This document shows, piece by piece, positions 1 through 56,086 of a stretch of DNA of 64,000 nt. The stretch is taken from positions 4,832 through 68,831 of the IMG/VR virus record IMGVR_UViG_3300034102_001642. One strand, given 5' to 3'. Every line of letters starts with the position of its first letter. Positions within the stretch are counted from its first letter, which is position 1. The stretch is from a virus. Taxonomy: Duplodnaviria; Caudoviricetes. The notes beneath the pieces are model-generated. The model was not told the origin of the DNA. It was given only the letters and a program-made list of their open reading frames with translations, and ran no database searches. A program made the translations under genes and the position numbers.

Positions 1-1593
1 CTTACAGAAGTTACAAGTATGGTAAACAATACAGATTCTGCAAAGGGAGTTTATTCTACATCAGGAACTACATGTAAGTTTACAATTGACACAGGCTCTG
101 CTTCGGGAACTTTAGGAATATTAATTAACCCAATGAATACATCAAACGTTTCTGGAACGTCATTAAGCGGATACGGTAAAAATGCATCGGTTACGGATTT
201 GAAACCAAATAAACCTTCTGTTGCAGCAGGAATGCTTTCTTATAGTTACGGAGGCAAGATGGTTTGGTCTGCTAATAACATAACTGTAACTAGTTGGACA
301 GTGTACAATGATGGTTCGGTATATGCAACCTCTGCATCCTCAAGTCCTAGTACTAATTTCTTAGACATAGATCGACCTGGTGCGTCTCCAGATACATTCG
401 GGTCTTTTGTAGTATTAATTATTGGAACATCTCCAAGATTTTCAGAAACCGCTTGGCTTTCTTCTCCAGCTTTAACTATAACATATCCACCAGCACCAAA
501 TGACTGGTACTGCACAACTTCTATTAATGGTGGAGGCGTGGGTAATTGTGATTATACAAAACCTGGTTTTGATAACTCTGGCTCTGGCAGTGGCTTCTCT
601 CGCCAGTGTACATTTGGAACAGCTTATCCAGCATGTCAATCAACTAATCCTCCACCAGCTAACACATGGAAATGCACAACATCTAGTCCTGGAGCTGGCG
701 TAGGTAATTGTAGTTACACCGATCCTGGTTTTGATAACTCTGGCTCTGGCAGCGGTTATACTCGCCAGTGCACACTTGGAACAAGCTATCCAGAATGTCA
801 ATCAACTAACCCAGCTCCCGTACAAACTAACACATGGAAATGCACAACATCTAGTCCTGGAGCTGGCGTAGGTAATTGTAGTTACACCGATCCTGGTTTT
901 GATAACTCTGGCTCTGGCAGCGGCTACTCTCGCCAGTGCACATTTGGAACAAGCTATCCAGAATGTCAATCAACAAATCCCGCAACAACATTTGCGCCAC
1001 CGTTCTTCCCACCAGAGTTTTTTTCTCCACCAGAGTTTTTTTCTCCACCAACTTTTGGAGGCAAAGGACCCCTACCAACATTTGCGCCACCGTTCTTCCC
1101 ACCGTTCTTCCCACCAGGATTTAAGGGTAAATGTTTAGCACCAGATGCTTTGGCTCTATCTAAAAATGGTTTTGTTAAAGCAAAAGATATACGAGTTGGA
1201 GACGAGCTAATATCTATTAGTAAATCAGACATAAGCTTTGATTCTGTACTAAAAGATAAAACATCACAAAGCTTATCAGAAAATATTCAATTTGAAAACG
1301 TTAAGGTAATTTCTGTAACAGAAAAAACTTCAACGCTAATTGGATTTAATGAAATAGGGAAGAACTATTCTATTACTCAGCCTATATTTATTAAGAATTC
1401 GGGCGGTATAGAATACAGAAATGCTGGAGATATCAATATTGGGGATGTCATTATAAGTATAGGCTTGGATGGCGTGGTTTCAGATATCGTAGTAGAATCT
1501 ATTGAGACGGATAACTTTGAGTCAATAGTTTATGATATTAGAACCTCTCCACAACCTTGGTTTATTGTTAATTCTACTATAGCCATAGCATAA
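1..1593 (+). CDS. Probable virion surface protein (5'-truncated): Ser/Thr/Gly-rich region, three 4-Cys repeats, Pro/Phe repeat tract, C-terminal Hint-like domain
   Basis: Frame is open from base 1, so ATG 19 may be internal. 3x W.CTTS..G.GVGNC.YT.PGFDNSGSGSG..RQCT.GT.YP.CQSTNP; FAPPFFPP tract; CLAPDALALSKNGFVKAKDIRVGD...AGDINIGD...VYDIRT...WFIVN matches the Hint block A/F pattern. Confidence 0.75.
   Translation, partial: LTEVTSMVNNTDSAKGVYSTSGTTCKFTIDTGSASGTLGILINPMNTSNVSGTSLSGYGKNASVTDLKPNKPSVAAGMLSYSYGGKMVWSANNITVTSWTVYNDGSVYATSASSSPSTNFLDIDRPGASPDTFGSFVVLIIGTSPRFSETAWLSSPALTITYPPAPNDWYCTTSINGGGVGNCDYTKPGFDNSGSGSGFSRQCTFGTAYPACQSTNPPPANTWKCTTSSPGAGVGNCSYTDPGFDNSGSGSGYTRQCTLGTSYPECQSTNPAPVQTNTWKCTTSSPGAGVGNCSYTDPGFDNSGSGSGYSRQCTFGTSYPECQSTNPATTFAPPFFPPEFFSPPEFFSPPTFGGKGPLPTFAPPFFPPFFPPGFKGKCLAPDALALSKNGFVKAKDIRVGDELISISKSDISFDSVLKDKTSQSLSENIQFENVKVISVTEKTSTLIGFNEIGKNYSITQPIFIKNSGGIEYRNAGDINIGDVIISIGLDGVVSDIVVESIETDNFESIVYDIRTSPQPWFIVNSTIAIA
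505..981 (+). repeat. Three tandem ~150-170 nt repeats encoding 4-Cys modules
   Basis: Copies begin near 505, 661 and 829; copies 2 and 3 are nearly identical in DNA. Confidence 0.9.
991..1118 (+). repeat. In-frame 12/18-nt repeats encoding PPFF / PPEFFS
   Basis: ccaccgttcttc and ccaccagagtttttttct units. Confidence 0.9.
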
Positions 1594-1629
1594 AAATTAT
1601 GCTATAATTTTTAAAAAAGGAGATTTACC

Positions 1630-1860
1630 GTGTCTATAAAAAGAGATATTGATGGAGAAGTATTTTTAGTTCTCGTTGATAATGAGTTTGCTGGATGGTT
1701 TAGTATACCAACAGGGGACCTTGAAACAGAAATATTAAGATCAGGGCTATCAAGTAACCCTAAGATAATAAATTTTACAGATTTGCCTATAGAAATATCA
1801 CAACTTCCAACCCCAGCATCTGGATGGAAATGGGACGGCACATCATTTAATAAGGATTAA
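1630..1860 (+). CDS. Hypothetical protein (ends in GWKWDG motif; possible fibre-associated protein)
   Basis: GTG start after AAGGAG; TGCTATAAT promoter at 1600-1608. Confidence 0.7.
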   Translation: MSIKRDIDGEVFLVLVDNEFAGWFSIPTGDLETEILRSGLSSNPKIINFTDLPIEISQLPTPASGWKWDGTSFNKD

Positions 1861-1862
1861 TT

Positions 1863-2102
1863 ATGACTTCAAGGTGGCAAACAATAAAAGCTAACCTAGT
1901 TGACCCAAATACCGTAAAGCCATGGGACATGCTAAATCCAAATACCGTATGGACTACTGACGAAAAAAAAGAACAAAGACTAAATATTTGCAGGGGATGC
2001 CCTGAGTTCATATCATTAACCACACAATGTAAACAATGTGGCTGTATTATGAAAATGAAAACAGCAATGGAAGCAGCAGTCTGTCCTTTATCAAAATGGT
2101 AA
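1863..2102 (+). CDS. Small Cys-rich metal-binding protein (R..IC..C...C..CGC...K......CP..KW)
   Basis: Six-Cys pattern common in aquatic phage ORFs. Confidence 0.7.
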   Translation: MTSRWQTIKANLVDPNTVKPWDMLNPNTVWTTDEKKEQRLNICRGCPEFISLTTQCKQCGCIMKMKTAMEAAVCPLSKW

Positions 2103-2173
2103 AAAATCTTATTTATAGAAAATAATAAGGTATAATTATCTAAGCAACACAATCAAATATAGGGGGTAGTCAA

Positions 2174-2731
2174 TTGGCCACCAATTATCCAACTAGCTTA
2201 GATCAATTAGTTAATCCTAATTCTTCCGACGAGCTATCATCACCATCTCATTCGCAGCAACATATAAATGCAAATGATGCTATTGAGGCATTAGAAACAA
2301 AAGTCGGTGTAAATGGTTCAACAGATCCAAACTCACTGTCATACAAAGTTTCAAATATTGAAACTACGTTAATCAATTTAGACAATAGCACAGACAACGT
2401 TATAGAGCTTCTTGGATTAGAAGGCAACAATGACCTTGCAGTCTATGGTATTGAAAACGCTACCAACTTAGATTCTTTTGCAAAAAGCGTATGGAGAACT
2501 GCTAAGTATAACATTCAGGTGACAAGGGGATCCGATGTGTATACATCAGAGATTCTTGTTTCCCACGATGGAACAGACATAATGGTTTCAGAATCAAACA
2601 TAATTTCAAACACAAACAATAGTATATTTTCTTATACCTTTGAAGAAAACTCAGGTATAATTAGTTTAAGAGTCACCCCTGTTTCTGGTTCAATCTCAGT
2701 AAGATACGTCAGATCAGCGCTTAAAGCATAA
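2174..2731 (+). CDS. Putative virion structural protein
   Basis: N-terminal ATNYPTSLD...H...NDAIEALE.KVG motif of phage fibre-type proteins; beta-rich C-terminal domain similar to that of the next ORF. Confidence 0.6.
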   Translation: MATNYPTSLDQLVNPNSSDELSSPSHSQQHINANDAIEALETKVGVNGSTDPNSLSYKVSNIETTLINLDNSTDNVIELLGLEGNNDLAVYGIENATNLDSFAKSVWRTAKYNIQVTRGSDVYTSEILVSHDGTDIMVSESNIISNTNNSIFSYTFEENSGIISLRVTPVSGSISVRYVRSALKA

Positions 2732-2758
2732 ATAAAAGCAGTAAGAGGAGTCATATAA

Positions 2759-3958
2759 ATGGCAACAGTAACAAAAAACTTTAGAATTAAATCGGGCCTT
2801 ATAGTTGAAGGTGCTACAGGTACAATCAATGGTCAAAATATACTTACAGAAACAGGCGGAAATGCTTACATCCTCAACCTTGTTGGCGGTGCCACTCTTG
2901 TAAAATCCGTAGACGCAGGAACATTTGCAGTCGATGGCGCAGGCAATCTTACAGTAAAGCCTAATACATTTGATGCATATGGATCAGCTTCATCTGCTCA
3001 ATCAGCAGCAATTTCTGCAGCATCATCAGATGCAACAACTAAGGCATCTGCAGCACAGTCTGCAGCAATTACAGCAGCAGCAACAGATGCAACAACTAAG
3101 GTAGCAGCAGAAGCAGCACTTAGAGTATCTGGCGATGCAGCATCAGTAGCCACTGCAGCAGCAGACGCTACTACAAAGGCCAACGCCGCTCAAGCAGCAG
3201 CCGAAGCAACAGCAGCAGCTGCTCTTTCATCTGCAATATCAACAGAGGTTTCAAACCGTAACACAGCAATTTCAACTGCAGTAGATTCATTGGTAGATGG
3301 AGCACCAGCTCTTCTTAATACATTAAATGAATTGGCAGCAGCAATAAATGATGACGCTAATTACACAACAACTCTTACATCAGCATTAGCCACAAAAGCT
3401 AATTCAGCAGATGTTACTTCAGCAATTTCTACAGCAGTTTCAGATGCCGCTTCAGATGCAACAACTAAGGTAGCAGCAGAAGCAGCACTTAGAGTATCAG
3501 GCGATGCAGCATCAGTAGCGACAGCAGCAGCTGACGCAACAACCAAGGCTAACGCAGCTCAAGCAGCAGCAGAAGCAACAGCAGCAGCTGCTAATACAGC
3601 TCAGCAAAATGGAACTACAGCATTTACAGCATTAAACGTAAATGATCAAGCTAAGCAATTTGCGGCTTCATCATCTGGGACAGCAGCAGTTGCTGGAACA
3701 GCTTATGAGTGGGCAAAGTCAGATTATCGCTCAGCTAAAGTTCTTGTTAAGATTGACAACGCAACACACAATGAAGTTTCAGAAGTTTTAATAACACTAG
3801 ATGCATCAGATAACGTAGCAATTACAGAATATGCAATTGTCGGAACTAATGGATCAAGAGGAACCATTACAGCAGATGTATCAGGTTCAAATGTAAGAAT
3901 AAGAGTAACTCCAGTAGATAACTCAACAGTTAAAGTATCTGGAACACTTCTTAAATAA
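2759..3958 (+). CDS. Ala-rich coiled-coil fibre protein
   Basis: DATTKA/AAQAAA repeats; fibre motif LVDGAPALLNTLNELAAAINDDANY; SD GAGGAG. Confidence 0.7.
   Translation: MATVTKNFRIKSGLIVEGATGTINGQNILTETGGNAYILNLVGGATLVKSVDAGTFAVDGAGNLTVKPNTFDAYGSASSAQSAAISAASSDATTKASAAQSAAITAAATDATTKVAAEAALRVSGDAASVATAAADATTKANAAQAAAEATAAAALSSAISTEVSNRNTAISTAVDSLVDGAPALLNTLNELAAAINDDANYTTTLTSALATKANSADVTSAISTAVSDAASDATTKVAAEAALRVSGDAASVATAAADATTKANAAQAAAEATAAAANTAQQNGTTAFTALNVNDQAKQFAASSSGTAAVAGTAYEWAKSDYRSAKVLVKIDNATHNEVSEVLITLDASDNVAITEYAIVGTNGSRGTITADVSGSNVRIRVTPVDNSTVKVSGTLLK
3084..3590 (+). repeat. Internal ~135-nt direct repeat (copies from about 3084 and 3453)
   Basis: DATTKVAAEAALRVSGDAASVATAAADATTKANAAQAAAEATAAAA occurs twice. 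Confidence 0.85.
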
Positions 3959-4023
3959 TTAAATAAAAGGTATGGGGTCCTTCCAAAACCCCAACAAAAC
4001 ACTTAGGGGATATGTGAACTTAA

Positions 4024-4557
4024 ATGGCAACAGTAAATAAGAACTTTAAAGTTAAGAATGGACTAAATGTCGCAGGGACTGCTACGTTTGAGTCTAATGT
4101 TGTATTAGGGTCTACTCCCTTAAGATTTGATACCGTAACAAATAAATTACAAATTCAGCTAAATGGCCAATGGATGCCAATAGCTTTAAATTCAGAAGTT
4201 CCAGACGAAAACACAATGATCAATTTAATGGACGTAGGTCTTGCAATTGATTACAATGGTGAGCCAATCTATACAATTCAAGCTAATGGGGTATCTACAA
4301 CAGCAACTAAATTTGCTGATGGCGGAAGCCCATCAACTCCAATTTATGGAATGGTCTTTGATTCTGGAAACGTAGACTGGGAATCAACCCCAGATATAAG
4401 CTTCATGGATATAGGCCTTGCAATTGATTATAATGGTCAACCAGTATATACAGTTCAAGGTAACGGTGTTTCAACATCGGCAAATAAATATGCCAATGGT
4501 GGATATCCAAGTACTTTAGTATACGAATTAACTTTTGATTCAGGCACTTTAGTATAA
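4024..4557 (+). CDS. Putative virion protein with internal duplication
   Basis: N-terminus MATVNKNFKVKNGL paralogous to 2759 ORF (MATVTKNFRIKSGL); MD.GLAIDYNG.P.YT.Q.NGVST...FDSG occurs twice. Confidence 0.65.
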   Translation: MATVNKNFKVKNGLNVAGTATFESNVVLGSTPLRFDTVTNKLQIQLNGQWMPIALNSEVPDENTMINLMDVGLAIDYNGEPIYTIQANGVSTTATKFADGGSPSTPIYGMVFDSGNVDWESTPDISFMDIGLAIDYNGQPVYTVQGNGVSTSANKYANGGYPSTLVYELTFDSGTLV

Positions 4558-4607
4558 ATAAATAAATGGTATAATAATCTAATACAAAGTAACAAAGGGA
4601 GAAAAAA

Positions 4608-6443
4608 ATGTCAACAGTAAGAATTCAAGTTCGAAGAGGATCAGCATCAGACTGGTCTGGAGTAAATCCAATACTTGCAGCAGGAGAACTAGGCGTTGAA
4701 ACAGACACTAGAAAAATCAAAGTTGGAGACGGATCCACCGCATGGAATTCCCTTTCTTACATAGCAGCCGATGCACCTGAAATTGGAGAAATTTCACAAG
4801 ACGCAATCAATACAGCACTTACAATGGGTGCAGGTTTAACAAAGACCTACAATGATGGCTCAAACACAATTACAATTAACGTAGACAGCAACGTTGTTGC
4901 TCTTAAGTCATACGTAGATTCAGCAGTAACTGGACTTACAAATTCAACAGCCAGTACATACTTAGAGAATGCGGATCGTGGAGCAGCAAACGGAGTCGCC
5001 TCTCTTGATGCAAACACTCAAGTGCCAAAATCACAATTGAATCTAATAGGATTATCAACAAATATTACAACAAGTGAAAACATAGAGGCACAAAATTTAA
5101 CATTAGCTGGAAACCTTTTTGTTAACGGAACAACTGTAACATTAGACACAGCTACCTTTACAACAGAAGACCCAATGATTCAATTGGGTTCAACCAACGC
5201 AGGCAATGCTTTAGATCTAGGATTTGTAGCTAAACACAATGATGGAGTTGCTAATCACACAGGATTTGTAAGAGATGCATCTGCTAATAAATGGAAACTA
5301 TTTACAGGAGTAACTGATACCCCAGGCCCTACAATTAATTTTGCCCAGGGAAGCCTAGACGACCTTGAACTTAGAGGCCTTACAGCAACAGATGTCAGCT
5401 TAACTAATTTAGTAGCAACAGGATCAGTAACACTTCCTGCAGGTTCTGTAGAGACAGCAGATTTAGCAACCGATTCAATAACTGCAGCAAAAATTTCAAT
5501 TGGCGCAGTAACTGCAGAAAAAATTGCAGCTGATGCAGTAACTGCAGAAAAAATTGCAGATCTTGCAATTACAAATGATCATGTAAGTGGTACTGCAGCA
5601 ATTCACCAAGACAAAATTTCTGGACTTGGTGCATCTCTTGCAGCTAAATCAGATTTGGCATCACCAACATTTACTGGTACAGTAACTCTTCCAAGTACAA
5701 CATCAATTGGTACAGTTTCTTCAACAGAAATTGGATACCTAGATGGAGTTACATCATCAGTTCAAACACAAATTACAGCAGCGGTTACCGCTCTTTCAAC
5801 CCATGAATCAGATACTACAAATGTTCATGGAATTGCAGATACAGCACTTCTAGCACTTAAGTCAGAGGTTGCTGCGGTAACACCAGCCACTTTAGGACTT
5901 GGTAATGTTGATAATACTTCTGATGCTAATAAGCCAGTATCAACAGCAACAAGCACAGCAATCGCAACAGCAAAGTCTGAAGCAATTGCAGACGCAACAT
6001 CACAGGTAAGTGCACTTATATCTGGTGCACCAGCAGCAATGAATACACTTGATGAACTTGCTGCAGCACTTGGAGATGACGCAAACTTTGCAGCATCAGT
6101 AACAACTAGCCTTGGATTAAAGGTAGATTCTTTAACACCAATCGTTCGGAAGACAGAATCATATACACTTTCATCACTAACTGAAAGAGATGACTTGATC
6201 GAAATGGGATCAGGATCACCTATAACTTTAACAATACCAGCAGATGCAACTCTAGATTTCCCAATCGGAACATCTATTGATATTCTGCAGACTGGAGCTG
6301 GACAAGTAACAATTGCCCCAGTATCAGGAACAGTTACAGTTAACGCAACACCTGGCCTAAAACTTCGTACAACCTGGTCATCTTGTACTCTCTTTAAGAG
6401 AGCAGCAAATACATGGGTTGTCTACGGCGACTTGATGGCGTAA
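4608..6443 (+). CDS. Tail fibre protein with Mtd/hyaluronidase-type N-terminal domain
   Basis: IQVRRGSASDW...NPILAAGELGVETDT.KIKVGDG..AWNSL; GLGNVDNTSDANKPVS and TLDELAAALGDDANF fibre motifs. Confidence 0.8.
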   Translation: MSTVRIQVRRGSASDWSGVNPILAAGELGVETDTRKIKVGDGSTAWNSLSYIAADAPEIGEISQDAINTALTMGAGLTKTYNDGSNTITINVDSNVVALKSYVDSAVTGLTNSTASTYLENADRGAANGVASLDANTQVPKSQLNLIGLSTNITTSENIEAQNLTLAGNLFVNGTTVTLDTATFTTEDPMIQLGSTNAGNALDLGFVAKHNDGVANHTGFVRDASANKWKLFTGVTDTPGPTINFAQGSLDDLELRGLTATDVSLTNLVATGSVTLPAGSVETADLATDSITAAKISIGAVTAEKIAADAVTAEKIADLAITNDHVSGTAAIHQDKISGLGASLAAKSDLASPTFTGTVTLPSTTSIGTVSSTEIGYLDGVTSSVQTQITAAVTALSTHESDTTNVHGIADTALLALKSEVAAVTPATLGLGNVDNTSDANKPVSTATSTAIATAKSEAIADATSQVSALISGAPAAMNTLDELAAALGDDANFAASVTTSLGLKVDSLTPIVRKTESYTLSSLTERDDLIEMGSGSPITLTIPADATLDFPIGTSIDILQTGAGQVTIAPVSGTVTVNATPGLKLRTTWSSCTLFKRAANTWVVYGDLMA

Positions 6444-6476
6444 CACAAATTTAAATAGTAAAAAAGGAGATTCAAA

Positions 6477-7682
6477 ATGGCAGTAGGTAAGAAATTCGGT
6501 AAAAAGGCACAGGCATCAAATGACTTTTTGGAGCCAATGGCACCAACGTCAGTAACAGCAACAAACGTACCAGCAAATCGTGCATATAATAATGGACGGG
6601 CTGACGTAACGTTTTCTTTGCCAGAAAATTCACCTGCTGCCACATCCTTTACAGTAACATCCTCCCCAGGATCATTTACTGCTTCAGGAGCATCTTCTCC
6701 AATATCTGTAGTTGGTTTACAATCAAATACAGCATATACATTTACAGTAACAGGAACAAATGCAGTAGGAACTGGCGCAGCATCTGCTGCCTCAAATAGC
6801 ATTACTGCAACAACTGTACCTCAAGCTCCACAAAGCCCAAGCGCAACTGCAGGAGTTAACCAAAACACAATTACTTGGACACAACCAGCAAATGGTGGAT
6901 CTGCAATAACCAACTATTATGTTGCAGGTAATGATGGAACAAGTGGAAATACAACAGCCCTAACAATAACTATTGCAGATACTGCTAATACATCTCAGTA
7001 TTATAATGTTTATGCAGATAATGCTAATGGTCGGTCAGCAGCCTCAGATAATACAGCAACTATTACTACTCAGGCACCGTTCTTCCCACCGTTCTTCCCA
7101 CCGTTCTTCCCACCAGGGTTCTTTGCCCCACCAGGGTTCTTTGCCCCACCAGGGTTCTTTGCCCCACCAGGGTTCTTTGCCCCACCAGGGTTCTTTTCCC
7201 CACCAGGATTTAAGGGTAAATGTTTAGCACCAGAATCAGTTATTTTCACTAATACTGGATGGGTAAAGGCTAAAGATATTAAAGTTGGGGATCAAGTAGT
7301 AACAGTTGATAGCTCTAATATTAATCTTGAATCTATAACCGCAAATAAGACATCTGGACAATTAGATTCAACAGTTAAGTTTACAAATTCAGAAGTTATT
7401 TCAGTAACAGAAAAAACTGGAAAGCTAGTTGGATTTAATTACAGAGGTAAAGACTACTCAGAAACTCAGCCTTTATTTGTAAAAACCTCAAATGGTATTA
7501 CCTATAAGAATGCAGGAGAAATTGAAATAGGAGAAATAATCCTAGGAGTAGATTCAAATGGACTAGTCCAAGAAACTCCAGTAACCTCAATTGAAAAGGG
7601 TGAAGCAGAATCAACTGTTTATGATGTTAGAACATCTCCACAGCCATGGTTTATCGTTAATTCCTTCCTAGTAATAGCTTAA
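6477..7682 (+). CDS. Fibronectin type III repeat protein with Pro/Phe repeat tract and C-terminal Hint-like domain
   Basis: Two FN3 domains (GLQSNTAYTFTVTGTNAVG; W..PANGGSAITNY.V); APFFPPFFPPFFPPG(FFAPPG)4FFSPPGFKGK|CLAPESVIFT..GWVKAKDIKVGD...VYDVRT...WFIVN. Confidence 0.85.
   Translation: MAVGKKFGKKAQASNDFLEPMAPTSVTATNVPANRAYNNGRADVTFSLPENSPAATSFTVTSSPGSFTASGASSPISVVGLQSNTAYTFTVTGTNAVGTGAASAASNSITATTVPQAPQSPSATAGVNQNTITWTQPANGGSAITNYYVAGNDGTSGNTTALTITIADTANTSQYYNVYADNANGRSAASDNTATITTQAPFFPPFFPPFFPPGFFAPPGFFAPPGFFAPPGFFAPPGFFSPPGFKGKCLAPESVIFTNTGWVKAKDIKVGDQVVTVDSSNINLESITANKTSGQLDSTVKFTNSEVISVTEKTGKLVGFNYRGKDYSETQPLFVKTSNGITYKNAGEIEIGEIILGVDSNGLVQETPVTSIEKGEAESTVYDVRTSPQPWFIVNSFLVIA
7074..7208 (+). 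repeat. Tandem in-frame 12-nt (ccaccgttcttc) and 18-nt (ccaccagggttctttgcc) repeats
   Basis: Read directly from the sequence. Confidence 0.95.
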
Positions 7683-7690
7683 ATATCTAT

Positions 7691-7725
7691 AAAAGAGGGG
7701 TAGCCCACAAGCTGCCCCTCTTTTT
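7691..7725 (+). terminator. Rho-independent terminator (potentially bidirectional)
   Basis: aaaagaggggtagc-ccacaa-gctgcccctc-ttttt. Confidence 0.85.
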
Positions 7726-7729
7726 GCTA

Positions 7730-7758
7730 TTGTATTTGTAAATTCAAAATGATACAAT
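7730..7758 (+). promoter_or_regulatory. Sigma70/SigA-type promoter for the oxygenase cluster
   Basis: TTGTAT-17nt-TACAAT with extended TG (TGATACAAT). Confidence 0.65.
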
Positions 7759-7764
7759 AAAGGC

Positions 7765-8478
7765 ATGACTACTATAAATGACCAATATGGATTTTCTTCA
7801 AAAGAAGAGCTTTTCCCAGGCGTGTGGGTATACAGAGATGTAATTAAAAAAGATTTAGATGTTATTAATAGATTAAACACGATAGGAAATTCTGCTAATA
7901 AAGAAGGAGATTCCAGATACAATTGGACATTCGGCTTTGTTGGATATAGTGATAGAATACCATCATATAGAGATTGCGAAGATATTAAAATTGGAGAGAT
8001 AATTAGTCCAGCTAATGAAACCCAGAAACTAGTTGGAGAATTATGGTCTGATTTAAAAAAAGCACAAGATGTGGCAGTTGCAGACTATTGCGCTAAATAT
8101 AACGTAAAGATGAATTATTGGGAAGTCATGAACTGTATTAGATACGGCAAGGGACAACATTTCCAAGAGCATGCCGACCATGGATTTTCATATAGTGCTA
8201 CAGTATCATTAGTTGCTTATGTAAATGACGATTATGCGGGAGGAAATTTATTTTTCCCTAAATTAGGCTTAGACATTAAGCCAAGAGCTGGTGATTTATA
8301 TATTTTCCCATCTACTTATTTGTTTTCACATAGAGCAATGCCAGTAGAAGATGGCATGAAGTTTTCTATTGTAACAATGCTTGATTATAATGATCATGCT
8401 CACAGACAAGAGTTTTTTGAAGCAAGAACCAGATGGCTAGAAGAAGATGCAAAAACTGGCAAGAATTCGTATGCATAA
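7765..8478 (+). CDS. 2OG-Fe(II) oxygenase, prolyl 4-hydroxylase-like
   Basis: HADH...YVNDDYAGGNLFF...KP.AGDLYIFPS...H...V..G.K. Confidence 0.88.
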   Translation: MTTINDQYGFSSKEELFPGVWVYRDVIKKDLDVINRLNTIGNSANKEGDSRYNWTFGFVGYSDRIPSYRDCEDIKIGEIISPANETQKLVGELWSDLKKAQDVAVADYCAKYNVKMNYWEVMNCIRYGKGQHFQEHADHGFSYSATVSLVAYVNDDYAGGNLFFPKLGLDIKPRAGDLYIFPSTYLFSHRAMPVEDGMKFSIVTMLDYNDHAHRQEFFEARTRWLEEDAKTGKNSYA

Positions 8479-9199
8479 AATTAAGGCATATACAATAAGA
8501 GATGGCTACGGAGAAGTTTTTCCTCTTTCAATTAAAAGAGATTGGATGGATAACACTTGGGACTCTCACGCATACAAATGTTTTCCAGTAGGGCTAACTA
8601 ATCAGCTTGGCTGGGGAATATCGTTTCCCGAAGATATATCTTTTATATGGGATGGAGTAACGGACAGCACCCCAGATCATGTTAAAATTTTATCTGGTGA
8701 AAAATATGCTTATTCTGGTAGAGCCAATGCAACTATAAGTTTTAATACAGGAATAATGTTTTCTACTGAAGAAAATTTAAGTCTTCTATCTATGCCAGTT
8801 CCAAATTTATTTATTGACGGTGCCGTGCCTTTTACAACTCTAATAAGCACATCATTTTTTAGAGGAGAATTGCCATGTGCTTGGATGATAACCAAGCCAA
8901 ACGAGGTTATTACAATAAAAGCAGGAACACCTATAATTGCAATATTGCCAATAGATCTAGAGGGCCTACAAAACTCAGAAATAAATTTTGATAGCGTAGA
9001 ATCTTTGCCAGACCCTAAGTTCGATTCAACCGAATACTCTAATGTTATTTACGATTTAAATAGAAAAGCAGTTTGGTCCAATTTTTATAGAGATGCCGTA
9101 GATCATCTTAAAAATGCCATAGGAAGCCATCAAGTAAAAGCTATTAGATTTAAAGTTAATCATGAATTAAACAGGGGAAATGATATAATAGATAAATGA
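8471..9199 (+). CDS. DUF6065-like protein
   Basis: P....RDWMD.....HAYKCFP....NQLGW motif; ATG 8471 overlaps the upstream stop. Confidence 0.7.
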   Translation: MHKIKAYTIRDGYGEVFPLSIKRDWMDNTWDSHAYKCFPVGLTNQLGWGISFPEDISFIWDGVTDSTPDHVKILSGEKYAYSGRANATISFNTGIMFSTEENLSLLSMPVPNLFIDGAVPFTTLISTSFFRGELPCAWMITKPNEVITIKAGTPIIAILPIDLEGLQNSEINFDSVESLPDPKFDSTEYSNVIYDLNRKAVWSNFYRDAVDHLKNAIGSHQVKAIRFKVNHELNRGNDIIDK

Positions 9200-9873
9200 A
9201 GCTAGCAAACCAATGGACAGAAGATCAAAAACCAAAATCTATTACTCCGTCTGGATTTTTTGGAAATTCAACAGACAACATTGTTGAAATTAGAGAATTC
9301 CTTACAATAGAAGAACGTAAGAGGCTGATGGATTTTGCCCTCAATAATAAAATTTGGGACATAACAGAAACACATAGGGATGCCGATGGTTTAGTTTTAT
9401 ATGACCATAAGGTTTGGGAAGATAGAGTTTGCACATATAATTCTTTAATGGCATCAGACCCATCAATTTTAGAATTAATTTATAGCATGATAGCAAGACT
9501 TAAAATAGAGGTAGACGCATTTTTTAATGTTGATGCAAAAGAAACTGGTCCAGCAATTGTTAGGTGGCCTGTTGGTGCAAGACAAGAGCCACATGCAGAC
9601 AAAGAATTTCATTCTGGCCCAGAAAAAGGAAGAGCAAATGATTTTCCTTGGTATGACCTAGCTGGTTTATTTTATTTTAACGATGATTATGAAGGTGGAG
9701 AATTATATTTCCCACAACATGGAATTGAATTTCAGCCAGTGGCTGGAGCAGCATATTTTTTCCCAGGTGACATGAACTATACACACGGGGTAAGACCAGT
9801 AAAATCTGGAAATAGATTTACATCTCCATTCTTTTGGACGATACAAAAACATACAGGAGAAAAACAACCATGA
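9196..9873 (+). CDS. 2OG-Fe(II) oxygenase, prolyl 4-hydroxylase-like
   Basis: HADK...YFNDDYEGGELYF...HGV..V.SG.R. Confidence 0.88.
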   Translation: MKLANQWTEDQKPKSITPSGFFGNSTDNIVEIREFLTIEERKRLMDFALNNKIWDITETHRDADGLVLYDHKVWEDRVCTYNSLMASDPSILELIYSMIARLKIEVDAFFNVDAKETGPAIVRWPVGARQEPHADKEFHSGPEKGRANDFPWYDLAGLFYFNDDYEGGELYFPQHGIEFQPVAGAAYFFPGDMNYTHGVRPVKSGNRFTSPFFWTIQKHTGEKQP

Positions 9874-10715
9874 GTGAATTAGAACATGTAGAGCTTTATC
9901 CAAAAGTTGATGTTTATAGAAATGTCTTAAAAGACCCAGCACAACTATATGAAGTAATGAACGCTTCAGAAAAAACTTCAGAAGGAAAGTATTTTTTAAA
10001 GACCTGGGATCCTTGGGCTCATTTTGGAACGTATACTCAGAAAAAAGATATAAGAGAAGTTTCTGCAGAAATTCAATCTACAGAAATGTTTATTAAAGAA
10101 AAAGCATTTGTTGAAGAAGTTGAAGCGGCATACAGTAAGGTTATAGCGGACTACATAGAAAGACACAACATCGAGTTGCCAGAAGGCTGGCGATTCAGCG
10201 GATCCTCTTATTCTAAATATCATGCAGGAGTTGACAACCTTAAGAGTAAACTTACCATGCAGTATCATACAGACCATATAACATCACAAAAAGATATGCC
10301 TGGGGATAAATTTTCAATTACCTGCACAATGTATATTAATGATGATTACGATGGCGGAGATATAGAGTTTTATATTAATGGGCAATTCATTAATCATAAG
10401 CCAAAAGCTGGTGACATTTTAGTATTTCCTTCAACAGAGCCATATTATCATGGGGTAAAAACAATTAATAGCAATGAGAAATTTTTTGTTAGAAATTTTA
10501 TAATGACCCCTCACAATGGCACAGAAGAATGGCTTGCCAACCAAAGAAAATTTGGTGCTTACAAATGGGCAAAAATGGAGCAAGAAAGAATTGATTACGA
10601 CGATAAAAGAAACATGGTTTATTTTAATGACGGAGTTCCAGTTACATATGAAGAGCATGTTGAAAAGCAATTTGGCGTCCCATTTGATGCTGAAAAGGAA
10701 AAGGGGATAATGTAA
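9870..10715 (+). CDS. 2OG-Fe(II) oxygenase, prolyl 4-hydroxylase-like
   Basis: HTD...YINDDYDGGDIEF...KPKAGDILVFPS..PYYHGV; ATG 9870 follows AGGAGA. Confidence 0.85.
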   Translation: MSELEHVELYPKVDVYRNVLKDPAQLYEVMNASEKTSEGKYFLKTWDPWAHFGTYTQKKDIREVSAEIQSTEMFIKEKAFVEEVEAAYSKVIADYIERHNIELPEGWRFSGSSYSKYHAGVDNLKSKLTMQYHTDHITSQKDMPGDKFSITCTMYINDDYDGGDIEFYINGQFINHKPKAGDILVFPSTEPYYHGVKTINSNEKFFVRNFIMTPHNGTEEWLANQRKFGAYKWAKMEQERIDYDDKRNMVYFNDGVPVTYEEHVEKQFGVPFDAEKEKGIM

Positions 10716-10717
10716 TT

Positions 10718-11470
10718 ATGGAAAGAAATATGGTTATAACTAGACACAAGCCAGATATTGTGCAATATGACAACTTCTTAACTCCAGATGAATGTAAATC
10801 AATCATTGATGTTCTAGCCATTAAGATGGAAAAAGAACAATTAAAGTGGATGCCAATTTCATTTTATGAGTCATACTCATCAGGTACTCCAGAGTTAAAT
10901 GACCCAGACACAATTGCCTGTGGCCTACCAGGAGATTTTTTTGTAGACCTTAGACAAAGAGTTATAGATGCTACTGCAGACATGGCTGGTAAAGATCCAG
11001 AACAAATGTCGCAGATAAGCTGGCACTCTCAAAGATGGGCACCAGGAGCTTTTGCAAATATGCATTCAGACAATACTTCTAATGATGGAGTTTCGGGAGC
11101 ATTTACTAGAAGTAGATATGCAACTTTTCTTTATTTAAACGATGATTTTGAAGATGGTATTTTAAACTTTAAGCATGGATTAACAATTGTTCCAAAAACT
11201 GGAACCCTAGTAACATTTGCTGGAGGATTCCATAACATGCACGAAGTTACAACAGTTAAAAAATCTATAAGATACACTCTTGGATCATTCTGGGATGATA
11301 GAGAAGAAAGTGATTATCCACAGGAAGTTAGAGATGCTTGGGCGGCAGAACTTGCTGAGGTTAGAGCAATGCAAGCAGATGAAGCTATTGAGTGGGAAGA
11401 CTACAGAAATAAAGGATTAAGAATAACCCCCCGTGGAGAAGTATATCCAGCATCAGAAGTAGAAGGATAG
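10718..11470 (+). CDS. 2OG-Fe(II) oxygenase, prolyl 4-hydroxylase-like
   Basis: DNFLTPDEC (P4H N-terminal motif), HSD...YLNDDFEDG...HEV....R. Confidence 0.88.
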   Translation: MERNMVITRHKPDIVQYDNFLTPDECKSIIDVLAIKMEKEQLKWMPISFYESYSSGTPELNDPDTIACGLPGDFFVDLRQRVIDATADMAGKDPEQMSQISWHSQRWAPGAFANMHSDNTSNDGVSGAFTRSRYATFLYLNDDFEDGILNFKHGLTIVPKTGTLVTFAGGFHNMHEVTTVKKSIRYTLGSFWDDREESDYPQEVRDAWAAELAEVRAMQADEAIEWEDYRNKGLRITPRGEVYPASEVEG

Positions 11471-11471
11471 C

Positions 11472-12122
11472 ATGCAAAACAATGTAGAGTTTAAGCAATT
11501 TATAATGTTTGATCTTAAAGTTTTGGGAACAGATATATGGTACTGGGAAAATGCATTAAGCTTTCCAGAACATTTAAAAGATTTTATAGACAAAATAGAC
11601 CAAGAGCCAGAATCATATTCCAGAATATCTAAATGGGAAAATTGGACTGCTAGCAATGATTCTAGTCTAGTATACGGTAAAACAAAAACAATAAATGCGT
11701 CTGCTTTAAAAAAAACTACTGGATCTGACATGGTAGATAAAAAAACTCTTTATATTGCTAATAGTTTTTCAATGGCTTTTCAAATGTGCACCGATAGATA
11801 TTTGGAATCTAGAAGGTTAGATAAAAATAAATATAACCTAAATCTTGATCGCATAACAATAAAAGCCTGGAATGAAGGACAATCAATGGGCCCACATTTT
11901 GATGGACAAGATGGAAATAAAGATTTAGCATTTTCTTTAGTAGCATATATTAATGATGATTATGAGGGCGGAGAGATTAATTTCCCAAACCATAATGTGA
12001 CTATAAAGCCAAAAGCTGGAAGCCTAATAATGTTTCCATCACAAGAGCCTTACATACACGAAGTAAAGCCTATTGTGTCTGGTACTAGATACATGAGCCC
12101 AGCACACGTATATATTAAGTAG
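11472..12122 (+). CDS. 2OG-Fe(II) oxygenase, prolyl 4-hydroxylase-like
   Basis: HFD...YINDDYEGGEINF...HEV..I.SG.R. Confidence 0.88.
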   Translation: MQNNVEFKQFIMFDLKVLGTDIWYWENALSFPEHLKDFIDKIDQEPESYSRISKWENWTASNDSSLVYGKTKTINASALKKTTGSDMVDKKTLYIANSFSMAFQMCTDRYLESRRLDKNKYNLNLDRITIKAWNEGQSMGPHFDGQDGNKDLAFSLVAYINDDYEGGEINFPNHNVTIKPKAGSLIMFPSQEPYIHEVKPIVSGTRYMSPAHVYIK

Positions 12123-12142
12123 ATAGGTGGTATAATAAAAAA

Positions 12143-13255
12143 ATGAGCACAGGAGTAAATGGCTGGAGATTTCCAGACTACACAGACACCCCAGACGTAC
12201 CTAGAGACCTAGGAAACCTTGGCGCTGACATTGCGACATTCATTGCCGCTAATCCAGGCCCACAGGGCCCTTCAGGCACCTTAGCGGTAGGTACAGTAAC
12301 TACTGTTAGTGCTGCTACACCAGCATCAGTTGTAAATGTAGGAACTGCATCTAATGCTATATTGAATTTAACATTACCAAGAGGTGTTGATGGAATTATT
12401 GGTGGTCCTGGTCCCTCTAATGTTTTAAATATTGGAACTGTTGTTGAAGGCGGCTCTGCTAGCGCAACAATAACTGGAACCAGTCCTTCACAAACATTAA
12501 ACTTAGTTCTTCCCCAAGGTCCGCAAGGCATACAAGGACCAACTGGACCTCAAGGTCCAGCCACAGTAGCTGTTGGAACAACTACAACTGGTGCGGCTGG
12601 AACAAATGCCTCAGTTGTTAATACTGGAACGACAGCAAACGCTATTTTTTCATTTACAATACCAAGAGGCGCAACTGGCGCAACTGGACCAACTGGACCT
12701 CAAGGCATTCCTGGAGACAGCGCAACAATTGACCCAATAGCAACAACAATAAGTTTAAATATACCGACATCTTCTGGATACGGAGTAAACTCTAACTGGT
12801 ACCCATTTGCAAACAATCTTTATTCAATGGGGCAGCCAACAGATGTCCCAAATGGAGTTTCATCAAATAGATTCTGGAAAACAATATACTCTAATACTGG
12901 AACCATTAATACTTCAGATGAAAGATTAAAAACTGATATTGTTACATCTCCACTTGGCCTTGATTTTATAAATAATTTAAATCCCGTAAAATATAAATTC
13001 CTTGAAGGTGGAAAAGAAGTAGTTGAGGGAGACATAGTTTCTATTCCTGGATCAAGAACACATTATGGACTTATTGCCCAAGAAGTAAAACAAGCATTAG
13101 ATGAATCTGGTGTTGGAGATTTTGCTGGTTGGGTAAAAATGGATATGTCACAAGAAGATTCTATGCAAGGCCTAAGATATGATCAGTTTGTGGCACCATT
13201 AATTAAAGCCGTACAAGAGCTTACAGCGAGAGTCAAAGCCCTAGAAGAGAAGTAA
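12143..13255 (+). CDS. Collagen-like fibre protein with C-terminal intramolecular chaperone (peptidase S74) domain
   Basis: GPQGP/GPTGPQG triplets; TSDERLKTDI...LGLDFINNLNPVKY...HYGLIAQEV...LRYDQFVAPLIKAVQEL. Confidence 0.85.
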   Translation: MSTGVNGWRFPDYTDTPDVPRDLGNLGADIATFIAANPGPQGPSGTLAVGTVTTVSAATPASVVNVGTASNAILNLTLPRGVDGIIGGPGPSNVLNIGTVVEGGSASATITGTSPSQTLNLVLPQGPQGIQGPTGPQGPATVAVGTTTTGAAGTNASVVNTGTTANAIFSFTIPRGATGATGPTGPQGIPGDSATIDPIATTISLNIPTSSGYGVNSNWYPFANNLYSMGQPTDVPNGVSSNRFWKTIYSNTGTINTSDERLKTDIVTSPLGLDFINNLNPVKYKFLEGGKEVVEGDIVSIPGSRTHYGLIAQEVKQALDESGVGDFAGWVKMDMSQEDSMQGLRYDQFVAPLIKAVQELTARVKALEEK

Positions 13256-13258
13256 GAC

Positions 13259-50403: not shown

Positions 50404-51249
50404 ATGACTACTGACTTTTCAGATATTAAAAAAATTGTAGTGGCCCCACAAATTGTAATATATAAAAACATATTTAAAAACAGCAAAGAGATAATTGAAT
50501 TGCTGCAGGATAGTAGAAAAATTTCGTTCTTTAATGAATGGAGGGAATGGTATGGTCAAGGATTTAGAAGAGACGCAGACTTTAGTCTTTTAAATACTAT
50601 AGACCCTGGAACCGATACATTTCTTAATTTAGAAAAACAATATATATTAGAAATAAATAAGTGTATGAATTTCATTAGAGAAGACTATCTTAATGAGTTT
50701 GGAAAAGAAAATGGAATATGGCCTTCATTTATAAAAGATTGGGAATCGCTAAAAGATACAGATAAAAAATACTGGATTGATTTTTTTAGATATGACGTAG
50801 ATTTTCAAGGAAAGGTAAACCCTTCTGGATTAATCATGGAATACCATGTAGATGAATTGCCAGTACCTGGGGAAACAAAAACAAAGAGGCACGTTGCCAC
50901 TGTTAATTTTTATTTAAATAATAGTTATGACGGAGGGGAAATTTGTGTATACGATTCTATATCAAATAATACATACATGTATAAGCCTATGCCTGGAGAT
51001 GCCGTTATAATGCCGTCAACAGAACCATTCTATCACGGAGTAAAGCCATTTAGTAAATCAGATAGGTATTTTTTAAGAGCGTTTATTGATTCTGATGTTA
51101 AAGACGAAATTGAGTGGAAAAAACAATACAACATAACAATTGGACAAGACAATTTAAATAATGTTAATACAGAAGAATCTTATGTAGAAAAAGATTTACA
51201 AACCATAAAGCTGTCTATCCCATCTAACCTTATAGAAGTTAAAGGCTAG
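50404..51249 (+). CDS. 2OG-Fe(II) oxygenase, prolyl 4-hydroxylase-like
   Basis: HVD...YLNNSYDGGEI...KP.PGDAVIMPSTEPFYHGV; similar to 9870 ORF. Confidence 0.85.
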   Translation: MTTDFSDIKKIVVAPQIVIYKNIFKNSKEIIELLQDSRKISFFNEWREWYGQGFRRDADFSLLNTIDPGTDTFLNLEKQYILEINKCMNFIREDYLNEFGKENGIWPSFIKDWESLKDTDKKYWIDFFRYDVDFQGKVNPSGLIMEYHVDELPVPGETKTKRHVATVNFYLNNSYDGGEICVYDSISNNTYMYKPMPGDAVIMPSTEPFYHGVKPFSKSDRYFLRAFIDSDVKDEIEWKKQYNITIGQDNLNNVNTEESYVEKDLQTIKLSIPSNLIEVKG

Positions 51250-51252
51250 TAA

Positions 51253-51558
51253 ATGTCTGAAAGAGCCGAAGTAAAAAGAGATAATGCTAAAGCACAAAAA
51301 AATAGCGGGCGAGGAGATTACCAAAAGGGTGATGCTAGGTGGAATCAATTTTTAGTTGATTATAAGGAGGCGGGATCTACATTTACATTGAATAAAGAGG
51401 TTTGGTCTAAGATCTGTACAGATACATTTAAAGTAAATAGAGATATGCATCCAGCCTTAAAAATTATTATAGGTAAAGAAAGCAAGGTGCGACTTGGTAT
51501 AATAGAGTGGGCAATTTTAGAAGAATTAATTAAATGCTGGGAGGATAATAATGCATAA
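51253..51558 (+). CDS. PD-(D/E)xK endonuclease / Holliday junction resolvase-like
   Basis: NSGRG...KGDA.....VDYK. Confidence 0.65.
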   Translation: MSERAEVKRDNAKAQKNSGRGDYQKGDARWNQFLVDYKEAGSTFTLNKEVWSKICTDTFKVNRDMHPALKIIIGKESKVRLGIIEWAILEELIKCWEDNNA

Positions 51559-52249
51559 TGTAGATGTTTATATAGATGACATATCTTTTCCGACAGCAAA
51601 AATTAGACCACTAGAACTTCAAAGAGAATGGATGCATTCATATGTTTATAACTGCTACCCAATAGCAATGGCAAATACTTTTGGATATGGTATTTATTTT
51701 GAACACGACATATCTTTTATTTGGGATGGCTCTAAAGATGACGGAGCAGTTGGTATTATTGGTAAAGAAAATATTTGGGTTGGTAGAGGAGAAGGAACGG
51801 CAAGCTTTGCCACCAATTTAATATTTAAAACTGATGAAAACACTAGTATGCTCACAATGCCAGTTCCAAATGAATATTTAGATGGAGCACAAGTTTTAAG
51901 TACAATATTGTCTACATCAGTATTTACTGGTACATTTACTATTGTTTGGAAACTTGATACTCCCAACAAAGAATATTTTGTTCCAGCTGGAACAAATATA
52001 GCATGTGTACTTCCAATATCGATTGGATCAATCCAGGGCTCAATTTTTAATATTAAGAATTCTAAATGGCCATTTGAAAAAATTCAAGATAGTGAAGAAT
52101 ACATGAGCTATTTAAAAGAAAAAAATTCTGAAGGCATTAGGCCCAGAATGTATAAAAAGGGAATTGATCATACAGGCAAAATAATTGGTAAACATGAAGT
52201 AGATAAAATAATTTTAAACGTGAACTATGAAAATGAACAGGAAAATTAA
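51551..52249 (+). CDS. DUF6065-like protein (paralog of 8471 ORF)
   Basis: PL..QREWM...YNCYP...AN.FGY.I.F..DISFIWDG. Confidence 0.7.
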   Translation: MHNVDVYIDDISFPTAKIRPLELQREWMHSYVYNCYPIAMANTFGYGIYFEHDISFIWDGSKDDGAVGIIGKENIWVGRGEGTASFATNLIFKTDENTSMLTMPVPNEYLDGAQVLSTILSTSVFTGTFTIVWKLDTPNKEYFVPAGTNIACVLPISIGSIQGSIFNIKNSKWPFEKIQDSEEYMSYLKEKNSEGIRPRMYKKGIDHTGKIIGKHEVDKIILNVNYENEQEN

Positions 52250-55546: not shown

Positions 55547-56086
55547 ATGACAGAAATAGAGCCATCCGTACACTTTGACAAGATGAATAAAGTTGTTTCA
55601 GAGTTGTTAAAAGGTAATTCAGCTACACAAATTGCCACCATAACTGGTATGAACAGAAAAGATGTTTTAGAGTATATTGATGAGTGGAAGTCTGTGGTCC
55701 ACAATGACACTAATGTTAGAGAACGTGCTAGAGAAGCTCTAATGGGGGCAGATCAACACTACGACATATTAATTAAAGAGGCATGGAAAACAGTAGAGGA
55801 TGCCGATACTCAGGGTCAACTTAATGTAAAATCTGGAACACTAAAACTAATTGCAGACATAGAGGGTAAAAGAATTGCAATGTTACAAGCAGTAGGAGTT
55901 CTTGAAAACAATGAGATTGCATCGCAAATACTAGAGAACGAAAGAAAGCAAGAAATGTTGGTTGGCATACTAAAAGAGGTTACGTCTAGCTGTAATCACT
56001 GTAAGGTGGAAGTTGCTAAAAGATTGTCTCAAATTACTGGAATTGTAGAGCCTATTATAATTTCTGAGGATATTGCTAATGTTTAA
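55547..56086 (+). CDS. HTH + helical protein, probable terminase small subunit
   Basis: LLKG.SATQIA..TGM.R..V; upstream of large terminase. Confidence 0.55.
   Translation: MTEIEPSVHFDKMNKVVSELLKGNSATQIATITGMNRKDVLEYIDEWKSVVHNDTNVRERAREALMGADQHYDILIKEAWKTVEDADTQGQLNVKSGTLKLIADIEGKRIAMLQAVGVLENNEIASQILENERKQEMLVGILKEVTSSCNHCKVEVAKRLSQITGIVEPIIISEDIANV

Follow-up and report, generated by a model that had tools for sequence, protein, structure and literature searches.

Why would a phage carry five divergent prolyl-hydroxylase-like enzymes in a row, directly behind the gene of a protein that ends in a repeat of proline and phenylalanine? The question is raised by a 64,000-nucleotide stretch of viral DNA, here called the window, which covers bases 4832-68831 of the 68,831-base IMG/VR virus record IMGVR_UViG_3300034102_001642. 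Two proteins of the window, designated A and H, end in the same cassette, an aromatic-proline repeat followed by a Hint (Hedgehog/intein-type) domain. The gene for protein H is followed by the oxygenase genes O1 to O5 and a gene of the DUF6065 family. A model's reading of the letters alone, referred to below as the original prediction, had proposed a portable C-terminal tag that is hydroxylated and then cleaved, ligated or anchored. Comparison with related viral loci reveals two separable layers: the repeat and the oxygenase array are constant, and the end module, of which the Hint domain is one version, is variable. Tentatively, and with a probability that falls somewhat short of even, the sequences suggest that a large clade of uncultured freshwater phages has a conserved module by which the surface proteins of the virion are matured.

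A cassette shared by two proteins

All long open reading frames (ORFs) of the window lie on the + strand. Protein H (6477..7682, 401 residues) has a conserved basic N-terminus and a fibronectin type III (FN3) region (Pfam fn3, 7e-8), followed by the cassette, which was delimited by alignment. Its aromatic-proline repeat (7065..7220), visible in the protein sequence and as a DNA tandem repeat, reads (PPFF)3(PPGFFA)5...PPGFKGK, has Pro-Pro-Gly in every unit and is the candidate oxygenase substrate. The Hint domain (7221..7679), assigned by alignment, model and Foldseek, begins at Cys249, whose codon lies at 7221 and which is counted as residue 1. It is 153 residues long, and no residues follow it. 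Protein A is represented by its C-terminal 530 residues (1..1593; ORF and alignment). The full protein has 725 residues, and its gene starts 584 nucleotides upstream of the window. The Cys-repeat protein that had been placed at 1-1593 is thus present there but truncated by the window start. It consists of Cys-rich repeats of 56 residues, an aromatic-proline repeat (991..1131; FAPPFFPPEFFSPP...PPFFPPGFKGK), again seen in both protein and DNA, and a Hint domain (1132..1590; alignment) with Cys1 at 1132, which ends in ...FIVNSTIAIA at the stop codon. The Cys-rich part (535..980), recognised as a DNA tandem repeat and in the protein sequence, has a 168-nucleotide unit in 2.7 copies, with four Cys per unit. 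The 56-residue unit follows the pattern W.CTTS...GNC.Y...RQC...YPECQS, and the versions found in relatives reach about 1100 residues with more units.

From PPGFKGK|C onward, the two C-termini are 54% identical (87 of 160 residues, E-value 1e-58), and nothing significant is found N-terminal to the shared cassette. Proteins A and H, with their unrelated N-termini, share one C-terminal cassette, as had been claimed. Both Pro/Phe repeats are perfect or near-perfect DNA tandem repeats with units of 12 and 18 nucleotides. In protein H, these are 12 nucleotides x 3.3 (7075-7114) and 18 nucleotides x 5.5 (7109-7207); the tandem arrays of protein A lie at 1009-1050 and 1087-1115. A non-coding or out-of-frame repeat was ruled out by the 12- and 18-nucleotide units, the unbroken ORF and the preservation of the peptide repeat despite differing copy numbers.

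The oxygenase array and its linkage to the repeat gene

Five oxygenase genes follow protein H on the + strand: O1 (7765..8478), O2 (9196..9873), O3 (9834..10715, listed from TTG 9834, with an alternative ATG at 9870), O4 (10718..11470) and O5 (11472..12122). All five belong to PF13640 and pass its gathering cut-off (31.8-49.9 bits vs 27). The assignment of O1 and O5 was completed by sequence searches and that of O2, O3 and O4 by motif alignment, for O3 together with the ORF itself. Between O1 and O2 lies the DUF6065 gene (8447..9199, + strand; PF19541, 100.1 bits vs a cut-off of 26.6, 1.8e-28), which overlaps O1 by 32 nucleotides and O2 by 4. The block of five divergent oxygenases and a DUF6065 gene described in the original prediction was therefore recovered in full. 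The window encodes eight oxygenases with a mutual identity of 18-24%. In all eight, the His-x-Asp...His motif (H136, D138, H189) is intact, and a Lys or Arg stands 10 residues past the distal His, where a basic residue serves the carboxylate of 2-oxoglutarate (2OG). H136, D138, H189 and K199 are invariant among 17 orthologues of O1. By sequence, the nearest solved relative of O1 is the prolyl 4-hydroxylase (P4H) of Bacillus anthracis (2e-6). That of O5 is the P4H of Paramecium bursaria chlorella virus 1 (PBCV-1; 6.5e-5), followed by PiuC-type hydroxylases and the lysyl hydroxylase LH3. Judged from these similarities, the array oxygenases are P4H-like.

The neighbourhood was compared in 181 related viral loci, retrieved in searches that started from the Hint cassette and from three distant family members and, independently, from DUF6065. 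Loci L001-L003, which are copies of the window's own record, were excluded from all locus counts. The counts of arrays, end modules, orthologues and pairs cover the + strand ORFs of the loci, and loci were counted without dereplication by contig or species. Across the relatives, the module has the order repeat protein, O1, DUF6065, O2, O3, O4, O5, to which some lineages add extra copies; the commonest array order, O1-DUF6065-O2-O3-O4-O5, occurs in 39 loci. An O1-type gene stands immediately 5' of DUF6065 in 159 of 160 cases. Among 162 arrays, 110 have at least 3 kb of upstream sequence, and a repeat or Hint gene was found within these 3 kb in 106 of them. This count includes 80 loci retrieved through DUF6065 alone. 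Three of the four remaining arrays have a repeat or Hint gene about 5.5 kb upstream. The linkage is also seen from the other side: DUF6065 lies within 4 kb downstream of 91 out of 106 protein H orthologues (unique sequences with at least 4 kb of downstream sequence). Further repeat-Hint genes are directly followed by an oxygenase in nine loci (L010, L013, L017, L018, L021, L024, L078, L099 and L102).

Six proline-poor orthologues with an FG-type repeat (FTPFGAFG..., proline fraction 0.10-0.13) are the only ones of the 106 without a downstream oxygenase array. In the other nine that lack DUF6065 within 4 kb, oxygenases or a more distant array are still present. The proline-poor sub-clade without the array is otherwise syntenic with the window. 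In loci L077-L087 (e.g., L080:10001-11281), the proline-poor repeat resembles FG-nucleoporins (FGFTPFGAFGFTPFG), and the Hint domain ends in the canonical VHNK. The interval between repeat gene and portal holds no array in these loci; it holds three ORFs of about 220 residues, a class II ribonucleotide reductase and an ORF of 1196 residues.

The repeat is the best candidate substrate of the array because the array lies in the structural block, keeps a fixed order of five paralogues that diverged long ago, is lost together with the prolines and consists of P4H-like members. As an assignment from sequence, it may well be right, with a chance slightly under one half. The best-surviving alternative is that the oxygenases are unrelated to the repeat. 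They would then be host-takeover or auxiliary metabolic enzymes acting on host proteins (e.g., translation factors), nucleotides, DNA or small molecules, a role also assumed for the numerous 2OG-Fe(II) oxygenases of cyanophages, and the adjacency would be inherited gene order. Several findings favour this alternative and weigh against the maturation module. All linkage counts come from one syntenic phage clade and are not phylogenetically independent, and the contrast between proline-poor repeats and missing arrays represents one, at most two, evolutionary events. The records of the proline-poor relatives retain one to five oxygenases elsewhere, and one of five such records has a DUF6065 gene. 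In the window, three of the eight oxygenases and one of the two DUF6065 genes lie among replication, packaging and accessory genes, away from the structural genes and far from any repeat protein. These are, all on the + strand, the sixth oxygenase (50404..51249) in the replication/accessory region, the seventh (56073..56678) directly upstream of the large terminase gene, the eighth (61279..61890), all three from motif alignment, and the second DUF6065 gene (51551..52249; window annotation), also in the replication/accessory region. Distant homologues of the oxygenases (23-31% identity) occur in 117 GenBank phage records, mostly of cyanophages and also of Methylophilales phages. In the passages of the paper that bear on these enzymes, 14 of 16 cyanomyophages carry 2OG-Fe(II) oxygenases in multiple copies, for which 2OG turnover or DNA repair was suggested (Sullivan et al. 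2010, PMC3037559). In addition, a tblastn search of 50,697 GenBank phage records with protein H and DUF6065 and a blastn search of GenBank phages with window positions 6001-14000 returned no match. As these GenBank phage searches were all empty, no cultured relative of this phage is known.

The DUF6065 protein also speaks for targets other than proteins. Its model (predicted local distance difference test, pLDDT, 84) is a predicted dUTPase-like beta-barrel. In a VIA-align comparison, Z reached 11.2 (1dun), and all 14 chains at Z>=8 were dUTPases or herpesvirus dUTPase-like proteins. Foldseek matched dUTPases weakly (E about 3e-4, template modelling (TM) score to the query 0.35), so the predicted fold rests on VIA-align. 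A phmmer search of the PDB with DUF6065 gave no sequence match, solved dUTPases included. Such a fold could point to nucleotides rather than proteins. In this phage clade, DUF6065 is always embedded in an oxygenase array; its clusters in the ESM Atlas are 63-94% viral, and IMG/VR contains at least 524 DUF6065-related stretches. No papers on DUF6065 were found in the literature.

Nevertheless, independence of oxygenases and repeat is unlikely. The array is tightly packed on one strand within the structural gene block, and the order of the five paralogues persists although the identity of DUF6065 drops to about 40% and the C-terminus of the repeat protein was swapped at least nine times. Among solved structures, peptidyl-prolyl hydroxylases come nearest in sequence. 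Loss of the prolines from the repeat coincides exactly with absence of the array, and the nine loci with other repeat-Hint genes add further cases of direct adjacency.

The exchangeable end module

To record the module after the repeat, each locus was represented by a single DUF6065 gene (104 of 147 rows). Hint domains account for 57 of these loci, short tails for 31 and small Cys-rich knots for 15, and one locus has another type. On the DUF6065 tree, the presence or absence of Hint requires 16 changes, at least nine of which are forced by well-supported branches; with shuffled labels, the mean is 34.6 and the minimum 27. The Hint domain as an obligatory part of the tag system has to be given up: it occurs in 57 of 104 loci and was gained or lost at least 9 to 16 times. 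Because the Hint domain is optional and swapped, the link is one of repeat to oxygenase and not of Hint to oxygenase. The predicted co-occurrence of repeat, Hint, P4H array and DUF6065 accordingly stands for the repeat gene but not for the Hint domain.

Protein H homologues without Hint (L026-L073, L108-L184; e.g., L060:3255-4208, L062:9611-10609, L114:8410-9243) end in Cys-rich knots or short tails. The knots have 6-10 Cys in 20-37 residues, and the tails are of the kind ...FGSRFIRSY.

Loci with two repeat proteins, the orthologues of A and H, gave 38 pairs. The end types agree in 32 of them, with 20 pairs of Hint domains, 10 of short tails and 2 of Cys-rich knots, and often the tails are almost the same or the Hint domains belong to one subtype. 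Of the six pairs that disagree, three involve wrong-frame artefact ORFs; the rows with L078 2-169 or L038 3239-3787 are repeat DNA read in another frame. The portability claimed for the cassette is borne out both by its unrelated N-termini and by this covariation. Since the ends agree within one genome, the cassette is selected as a unit. The concordance might arise because both proteins share a docking site, depend on one processing factor or bind one receptor.

Fold and active site of the Hint domain

Pfam gave sub-threshold matches to the C-terminal region (Intein_splicing 4.5e-4, Hint_2 3.5e-3). An AlphaFold (AF2) model built from an alignment of 32 relatives had a pLDDT of 93.2 and a predicted TM score (pTM) of 0.85. 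The top PDB matches of this model in Foldseek were inteins, the Tetrahymena BUBL domain BIL2, Hedgehog and a bacterial intein-like (BIL) domain of C. thermocellum (E 1e-7 to 1e-6). There were 59 matches at E<=1e-3, and those listed were almost all inteins, BIL domains or Hedgehog. The family profile matched the BIL entry 2lwy end to end (6.5e-12). By these fold matches and the profile match to 2lwy, the domain is a Hint domain closest in sequence to BIL. It is virtually certain from the model that the C-terminal 153 residues adopt the Hint fold, which upholds the earlier identification.

In 66 unique Hint ORFs (loci L001-L105), the junction residue is always a nucleophile, namely Cys in 64 of them and Ser in the other 2. 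A basic motif (FKGK, FKAK, FKSGK...) stands just before Cys/Ser1 in many subfamilies. Other parts of the active site deviate. Where block B would have Thr-x-x-His, the window copies have Ser-x-x-Gln (SETQ, SITQ), and in the alignment with 2lwy and KlbA the family consensus S-l-e-q faces T-F-D-H and H-D-H. The window copies end in ...LVIA and ...IAIA where relatives have ...LVHNK. The His-Asn end is kept only in the distant HNK subfamily, where 1-3 residues, usually Lys, follow. Because the block B His and the terminal His-Asn are missing, the catalytic competence of the window copies is not assured. Even so, self-cleavage of the Hint domain is likely.

Two familiar types of Hint protein were rejected. 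Both Hint domains of the window end at the stop codon, so there is no C-extein and neither is a true intein. The strands of the model reach residue 166 of 167; nothing follows the Hint fold that could correspond to the sterol-recognition region of Hog, and a Hedgehog homologue with lipid transfer was dismissed for this reason. With neither a C-extein nor a region beyond the fold, the domain at most cleaves its own N-terminus.

The deviations listed above suggest another alternative, in which the Hint domains of the window are catalytically dead and retained as a structural or receptor-binding fibre tip. Both block B residues are replaced (His by Gln, Thr by Ser), the terminal His-Asn has become Ile-Ala, and the C-terminus, where the module is often exchanged, is the usual site of exchangeable receptor-binding tips in phage fibres. 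One relative offers a degenerate copy without Cys1. It is L058:4358-5608, on the same contig as L104, which has a domain of about 158 residues after the repeat (FKTAPTNIIDQTT...) that lies below the Hint profile threshold and has no junction Cys; from its sequence, this is possibly a degenerate, inactive Hint domain. A dead domain is nevertheless improbable. Cys/Ser1 is kept in all 66 ORFs although identity falls to about 25-30%, which is hard to explain without chemistry at this position, and the block B Gln is the majority state of the family, with His kept in a few relatives.

If the domain is active, its thioester might be resolved by a nucleophile other than water. The C-terminus of the repeat protein would then be joined covalently to a virion protein, a small molecule or the host surface, in parallel to Hedgehog cholesteroylation and to thioester adhesins. 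This corresponds to the "ligated or anchored" option of the original prediction. The invariant Cys/Ser1 and the conserved basic motif before it agree with such a role, and the presence of the same module on both repeat proteins of a genome would be expected for one common acceptor. It is established for Hedgehog and BIL domains that nucleophiles besides water can resolve the Hint thioester (review PMC7765530). Ligation is quite improbable all the same. No sterol-recognition-like or adaptor region follows the fold, no candidate acceptor was found in the analysis, and 47 of 104 loci lack Hint and end in short tails or Cys-rich knots. As close homologues work without Hint, covalent chemistry is not essential to the role of the protein. 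Plain self-removal is favoured over ligation, given the Hint-less homologues with similar ends and the analogy to Peptidase_S74 discussed below.

Proposed maturation of the repeat proteins

The maturation pathway that we infer, from hydroxylation through cleavage and hydrolysis to a location in the virion, starts from structural proteins that have unrelated N-termini and carry one C-terminal cassette with a tandem aromatic-proline repeat as its core. The repeat units are PPFF, FFAPPG, PFF or PYF, and the repeats are 40 to 170 residues long. Before the particle is assembled, the enzymes O1-O5 would most probably act in the cytoplasm and hydroxylate repeat prolines, perhaps along with other residues. 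About half of the lineages, among them that of the window, also have a Hint domain, which would most probably perform an N-to-S acyl shift at Lys|Cys and then be hydrolysed off. The Hint domain would thus act as a removable C-terminal cap for the folding or assembly of a very hydrophobic polyproline-type rod. The mature protein would end in the repeat and a short basic tail, as in the homologues without Hint.

A further variant combines both chemistries. In this two-step "warhead", the five hydroxylases and a helper with dUTPase fold would turn the rigid, very hydrophobic aromatic-polyproline rod into a hydroxyproline-rich adhesive fibre resembling extensin or mussel glue. A nucleophile of the virion or of the host envelope, or an adjacent lysine, would then attack the Hint thioester and leave the protein covalently anchored. 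This variant is very unlikely.

The gene that follows the array in the window offers a second candidate substrate. It encodes a tail-fibre-like protein (12143..13255, + strand; sequence, Pfam and PHROG) with short collagen-like G-X-Y runs of about 2, 5 and 6 triplets, read from the sequence, and a C-terminal Peptidase_S74 self-cleaving chaperone (Pfam, residues 258-323, 52.5 bits vs a cut-off of 22, 6e-14). The collagen fibre described in the original prediction is thus present as regards its G-X-Y runs, but these are short and are accompanied by the S74 domain. B. anthracis P4H, the best solved relative of O1, hydroxylates collagen peptides. The fibre as the true substrate, with the repeat protein as a bystander, is nonetheless very doubtful: of the 71 arrays with at least 3 kb of downstream sequence, 45 have a collagen-like or S74 ORF in these 3 kb, a weaker linkage than the 106/110 of the repeat gene, and the prolines of the runs are mostly in the X position and not in X-Pro-Gly, while each unit of the protein H repeat has Pro-Pro-Gly. 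Of the two Pro-rich candidates that were said to flank the enzyme block, the repeat is a firm neighbour and the fibre a looser one.

Comparison with known systems

Among known autoprocessing domains, BIL domains (2lwy; Tetrahymena BUBL BIL2, 6y75) are the closest. They give the best profile match and are among the top fold matches, and, like them, the phage Hint domain is not inserted in a conserved host protein but lies in the variable region of a non-conserved one. According to passages of a review, A-type BIL domains end in His-Asn and 1-3 residues (PMC7765530), as do the distant phage members. Unlike BIL domains, the window copies lack His-Asn and the block B His and are strictly C-terminal, preceded by an aromatic-proline repeat and encoded by a phage among structural genes. 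The Hint part of Hedgehog (Hog; 1at0, 6tyy; E about 1e-6, TM 0.66-0.77) is likewise C-terminal, starts with Cys and has a cleavable N-terminal junction only. The phage domain differs from it by the missing sterol-recognition region, the absence of evident lipid transfer and of the block B His, and an unrelated N-terminal cargo. The closest functional analogy for the role proposed for Hint is the Peptidase_S74 chaperone of tail fibres and endosialidases, also a C-terminal domain that removes itself. Fold and chemistry are unrelated, as Peptidase_S74 uses a Ser-Lys dyad acting on the trimer and Hint would use a Cys thioester.

As for the enzymes, the P4Hs of PBCV-1 (5c5t) and B. anthracis (5hv0/3itq) are, among solved structures, the closest by sequence to O5 and O1, respectively, and share PF13640 and the His-x-Asp...His motif. 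PBCV-1 P4H hydroxylates proline-rich repeat peptides. In contrast to these known P4Hs, the phage has five fixed paralogues with a partner of predicted dUTPase fold in an operon-like array, and the place of (PAPK)n or collagen is taken by an aromatic-proline repeat as the candidate substrate. The 2OG-Fe(II) oxygenases of T4-like cyanophages are distant homologues that also occur in multiple copies, with a function given as unknown in the relevant passages (PMC3037559). They are scattered in variable regions with no substrate proposed, unlike the ordered array locked to the repeat-protein gene.

The function of oxygenases in aquatic phages has, in the same passages, been speculative since the first cyanophage genomes (PMC3037559), and the repeat provides a concrete, testable candidate substrate. 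Hedgehog/BIL-type autoprocessing domains as exchangeable ends of phage structural proteins are a further aspect for which no description was found in the literature. If confirmed, hydroxylation and Hint processing would be added to the known routes of virion maturation, and small (153-residue) C-terminal self-cleaving tags and new P4H specificities would become available for protein engineering. Should the covalent-anchor variant be true, neither Hedgehog-like protein ligation nor a multi-enzyme hydroxylation pathway would have been described before for bacteriophage particles, and the puzzling 2OG-Fe(II) oxygenase families of aquatic phages would gain a function.

Breadth of the family and previous descriptions

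A HMMER scan of 1.84 billion representative proteins yielded 97 proteins of the Hint family at E<=1e-3, 38 at <=1e-10 and 8 at <=1e-30. The match lies at the extreme C-terminus in most of the 97 representatives, and an aromatic and/or proline repeat stands just before Cys1 in most of the 42 that were examined. The repeats are of the types PFF, PYF, PPFF, FTPFGA, PPDFTPA and PPV(I), and the N-terminal parts include FN3 domains, Cys-rich repeats and PASTA-like domains. The last are seen in short members (P0015, P0034, P0042, P0046, P0057 and BFVD A0A6J5NY54; about 280 residues), which have a PASTA-like N-terminus instead of FN3; the Hint alignment profile matches PknB PASTA at about 5e-4. This similarity hints at peptidoglycan binding and possibly at Gram-positive or actinobacterial hosts.

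Family members are already present in UniProt and BFVD, from uncultured Caudovirales and under automatic names such as "Hint domain containing protein", "Fibronectin type III" and "PASTA_pknB domain containing protein". A search for homologous proteins with the Hint region returned only four unnamed ENA proteins. A scan of 185,579 prokaryote genomes for the cassette pattern found no cassette and a single unrelated inserted Hint, in a metagenome-assembled genome (MAG) of Paceibacterota (candidate phyla radiation, CPR). The protein concerned (L185:5607-10592) is alpha-2-macroglobulin-like, has 1661 residues and contains an inserted Hint/intein-like domain (…GAEKG|CFVGE…YVHN|QKG…).

Searches of titles and abstracts, which do not cover supplementary annotations, found no literature on Hint-domain autoprocessing in phage structural proteins. 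The literature on BIL domains and on P4H, phage tail fibers and hydroxyproline contained, by titles and abstracts, nothing on this system. The statement that the combination is not described in print thus agrees with the literature search. As far as the searches reach, the parts are of known kinds (BIL/Hedgehog-type Hint, viral P4H-like oxygenases), and their combination is undescribed.

Genome setting

PHROG matches in the window include the portal (15481-17064), a head protease, a capsid protein, a tape measure protein of 2493 residues, minor tail and fibre proteins, a DnaB-like helicase, a large DNA polymerase and the large terminase. By this gene content, the source phage is a long-tailed, siphovirus-like phage. 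The block of cassette and array lies among fibre-like and structural genes, with neighbours that match tail-fibre and structural PHROGs. It is located upstream of the portal, and the portal, protease and capsid genes come after it. After protein A, a protein of 79 residues with two CxxC pairs is encoded at 1863-2102 (phrog_13558, 2.7e-14); its position is taken by an oxygenase in several relatives.

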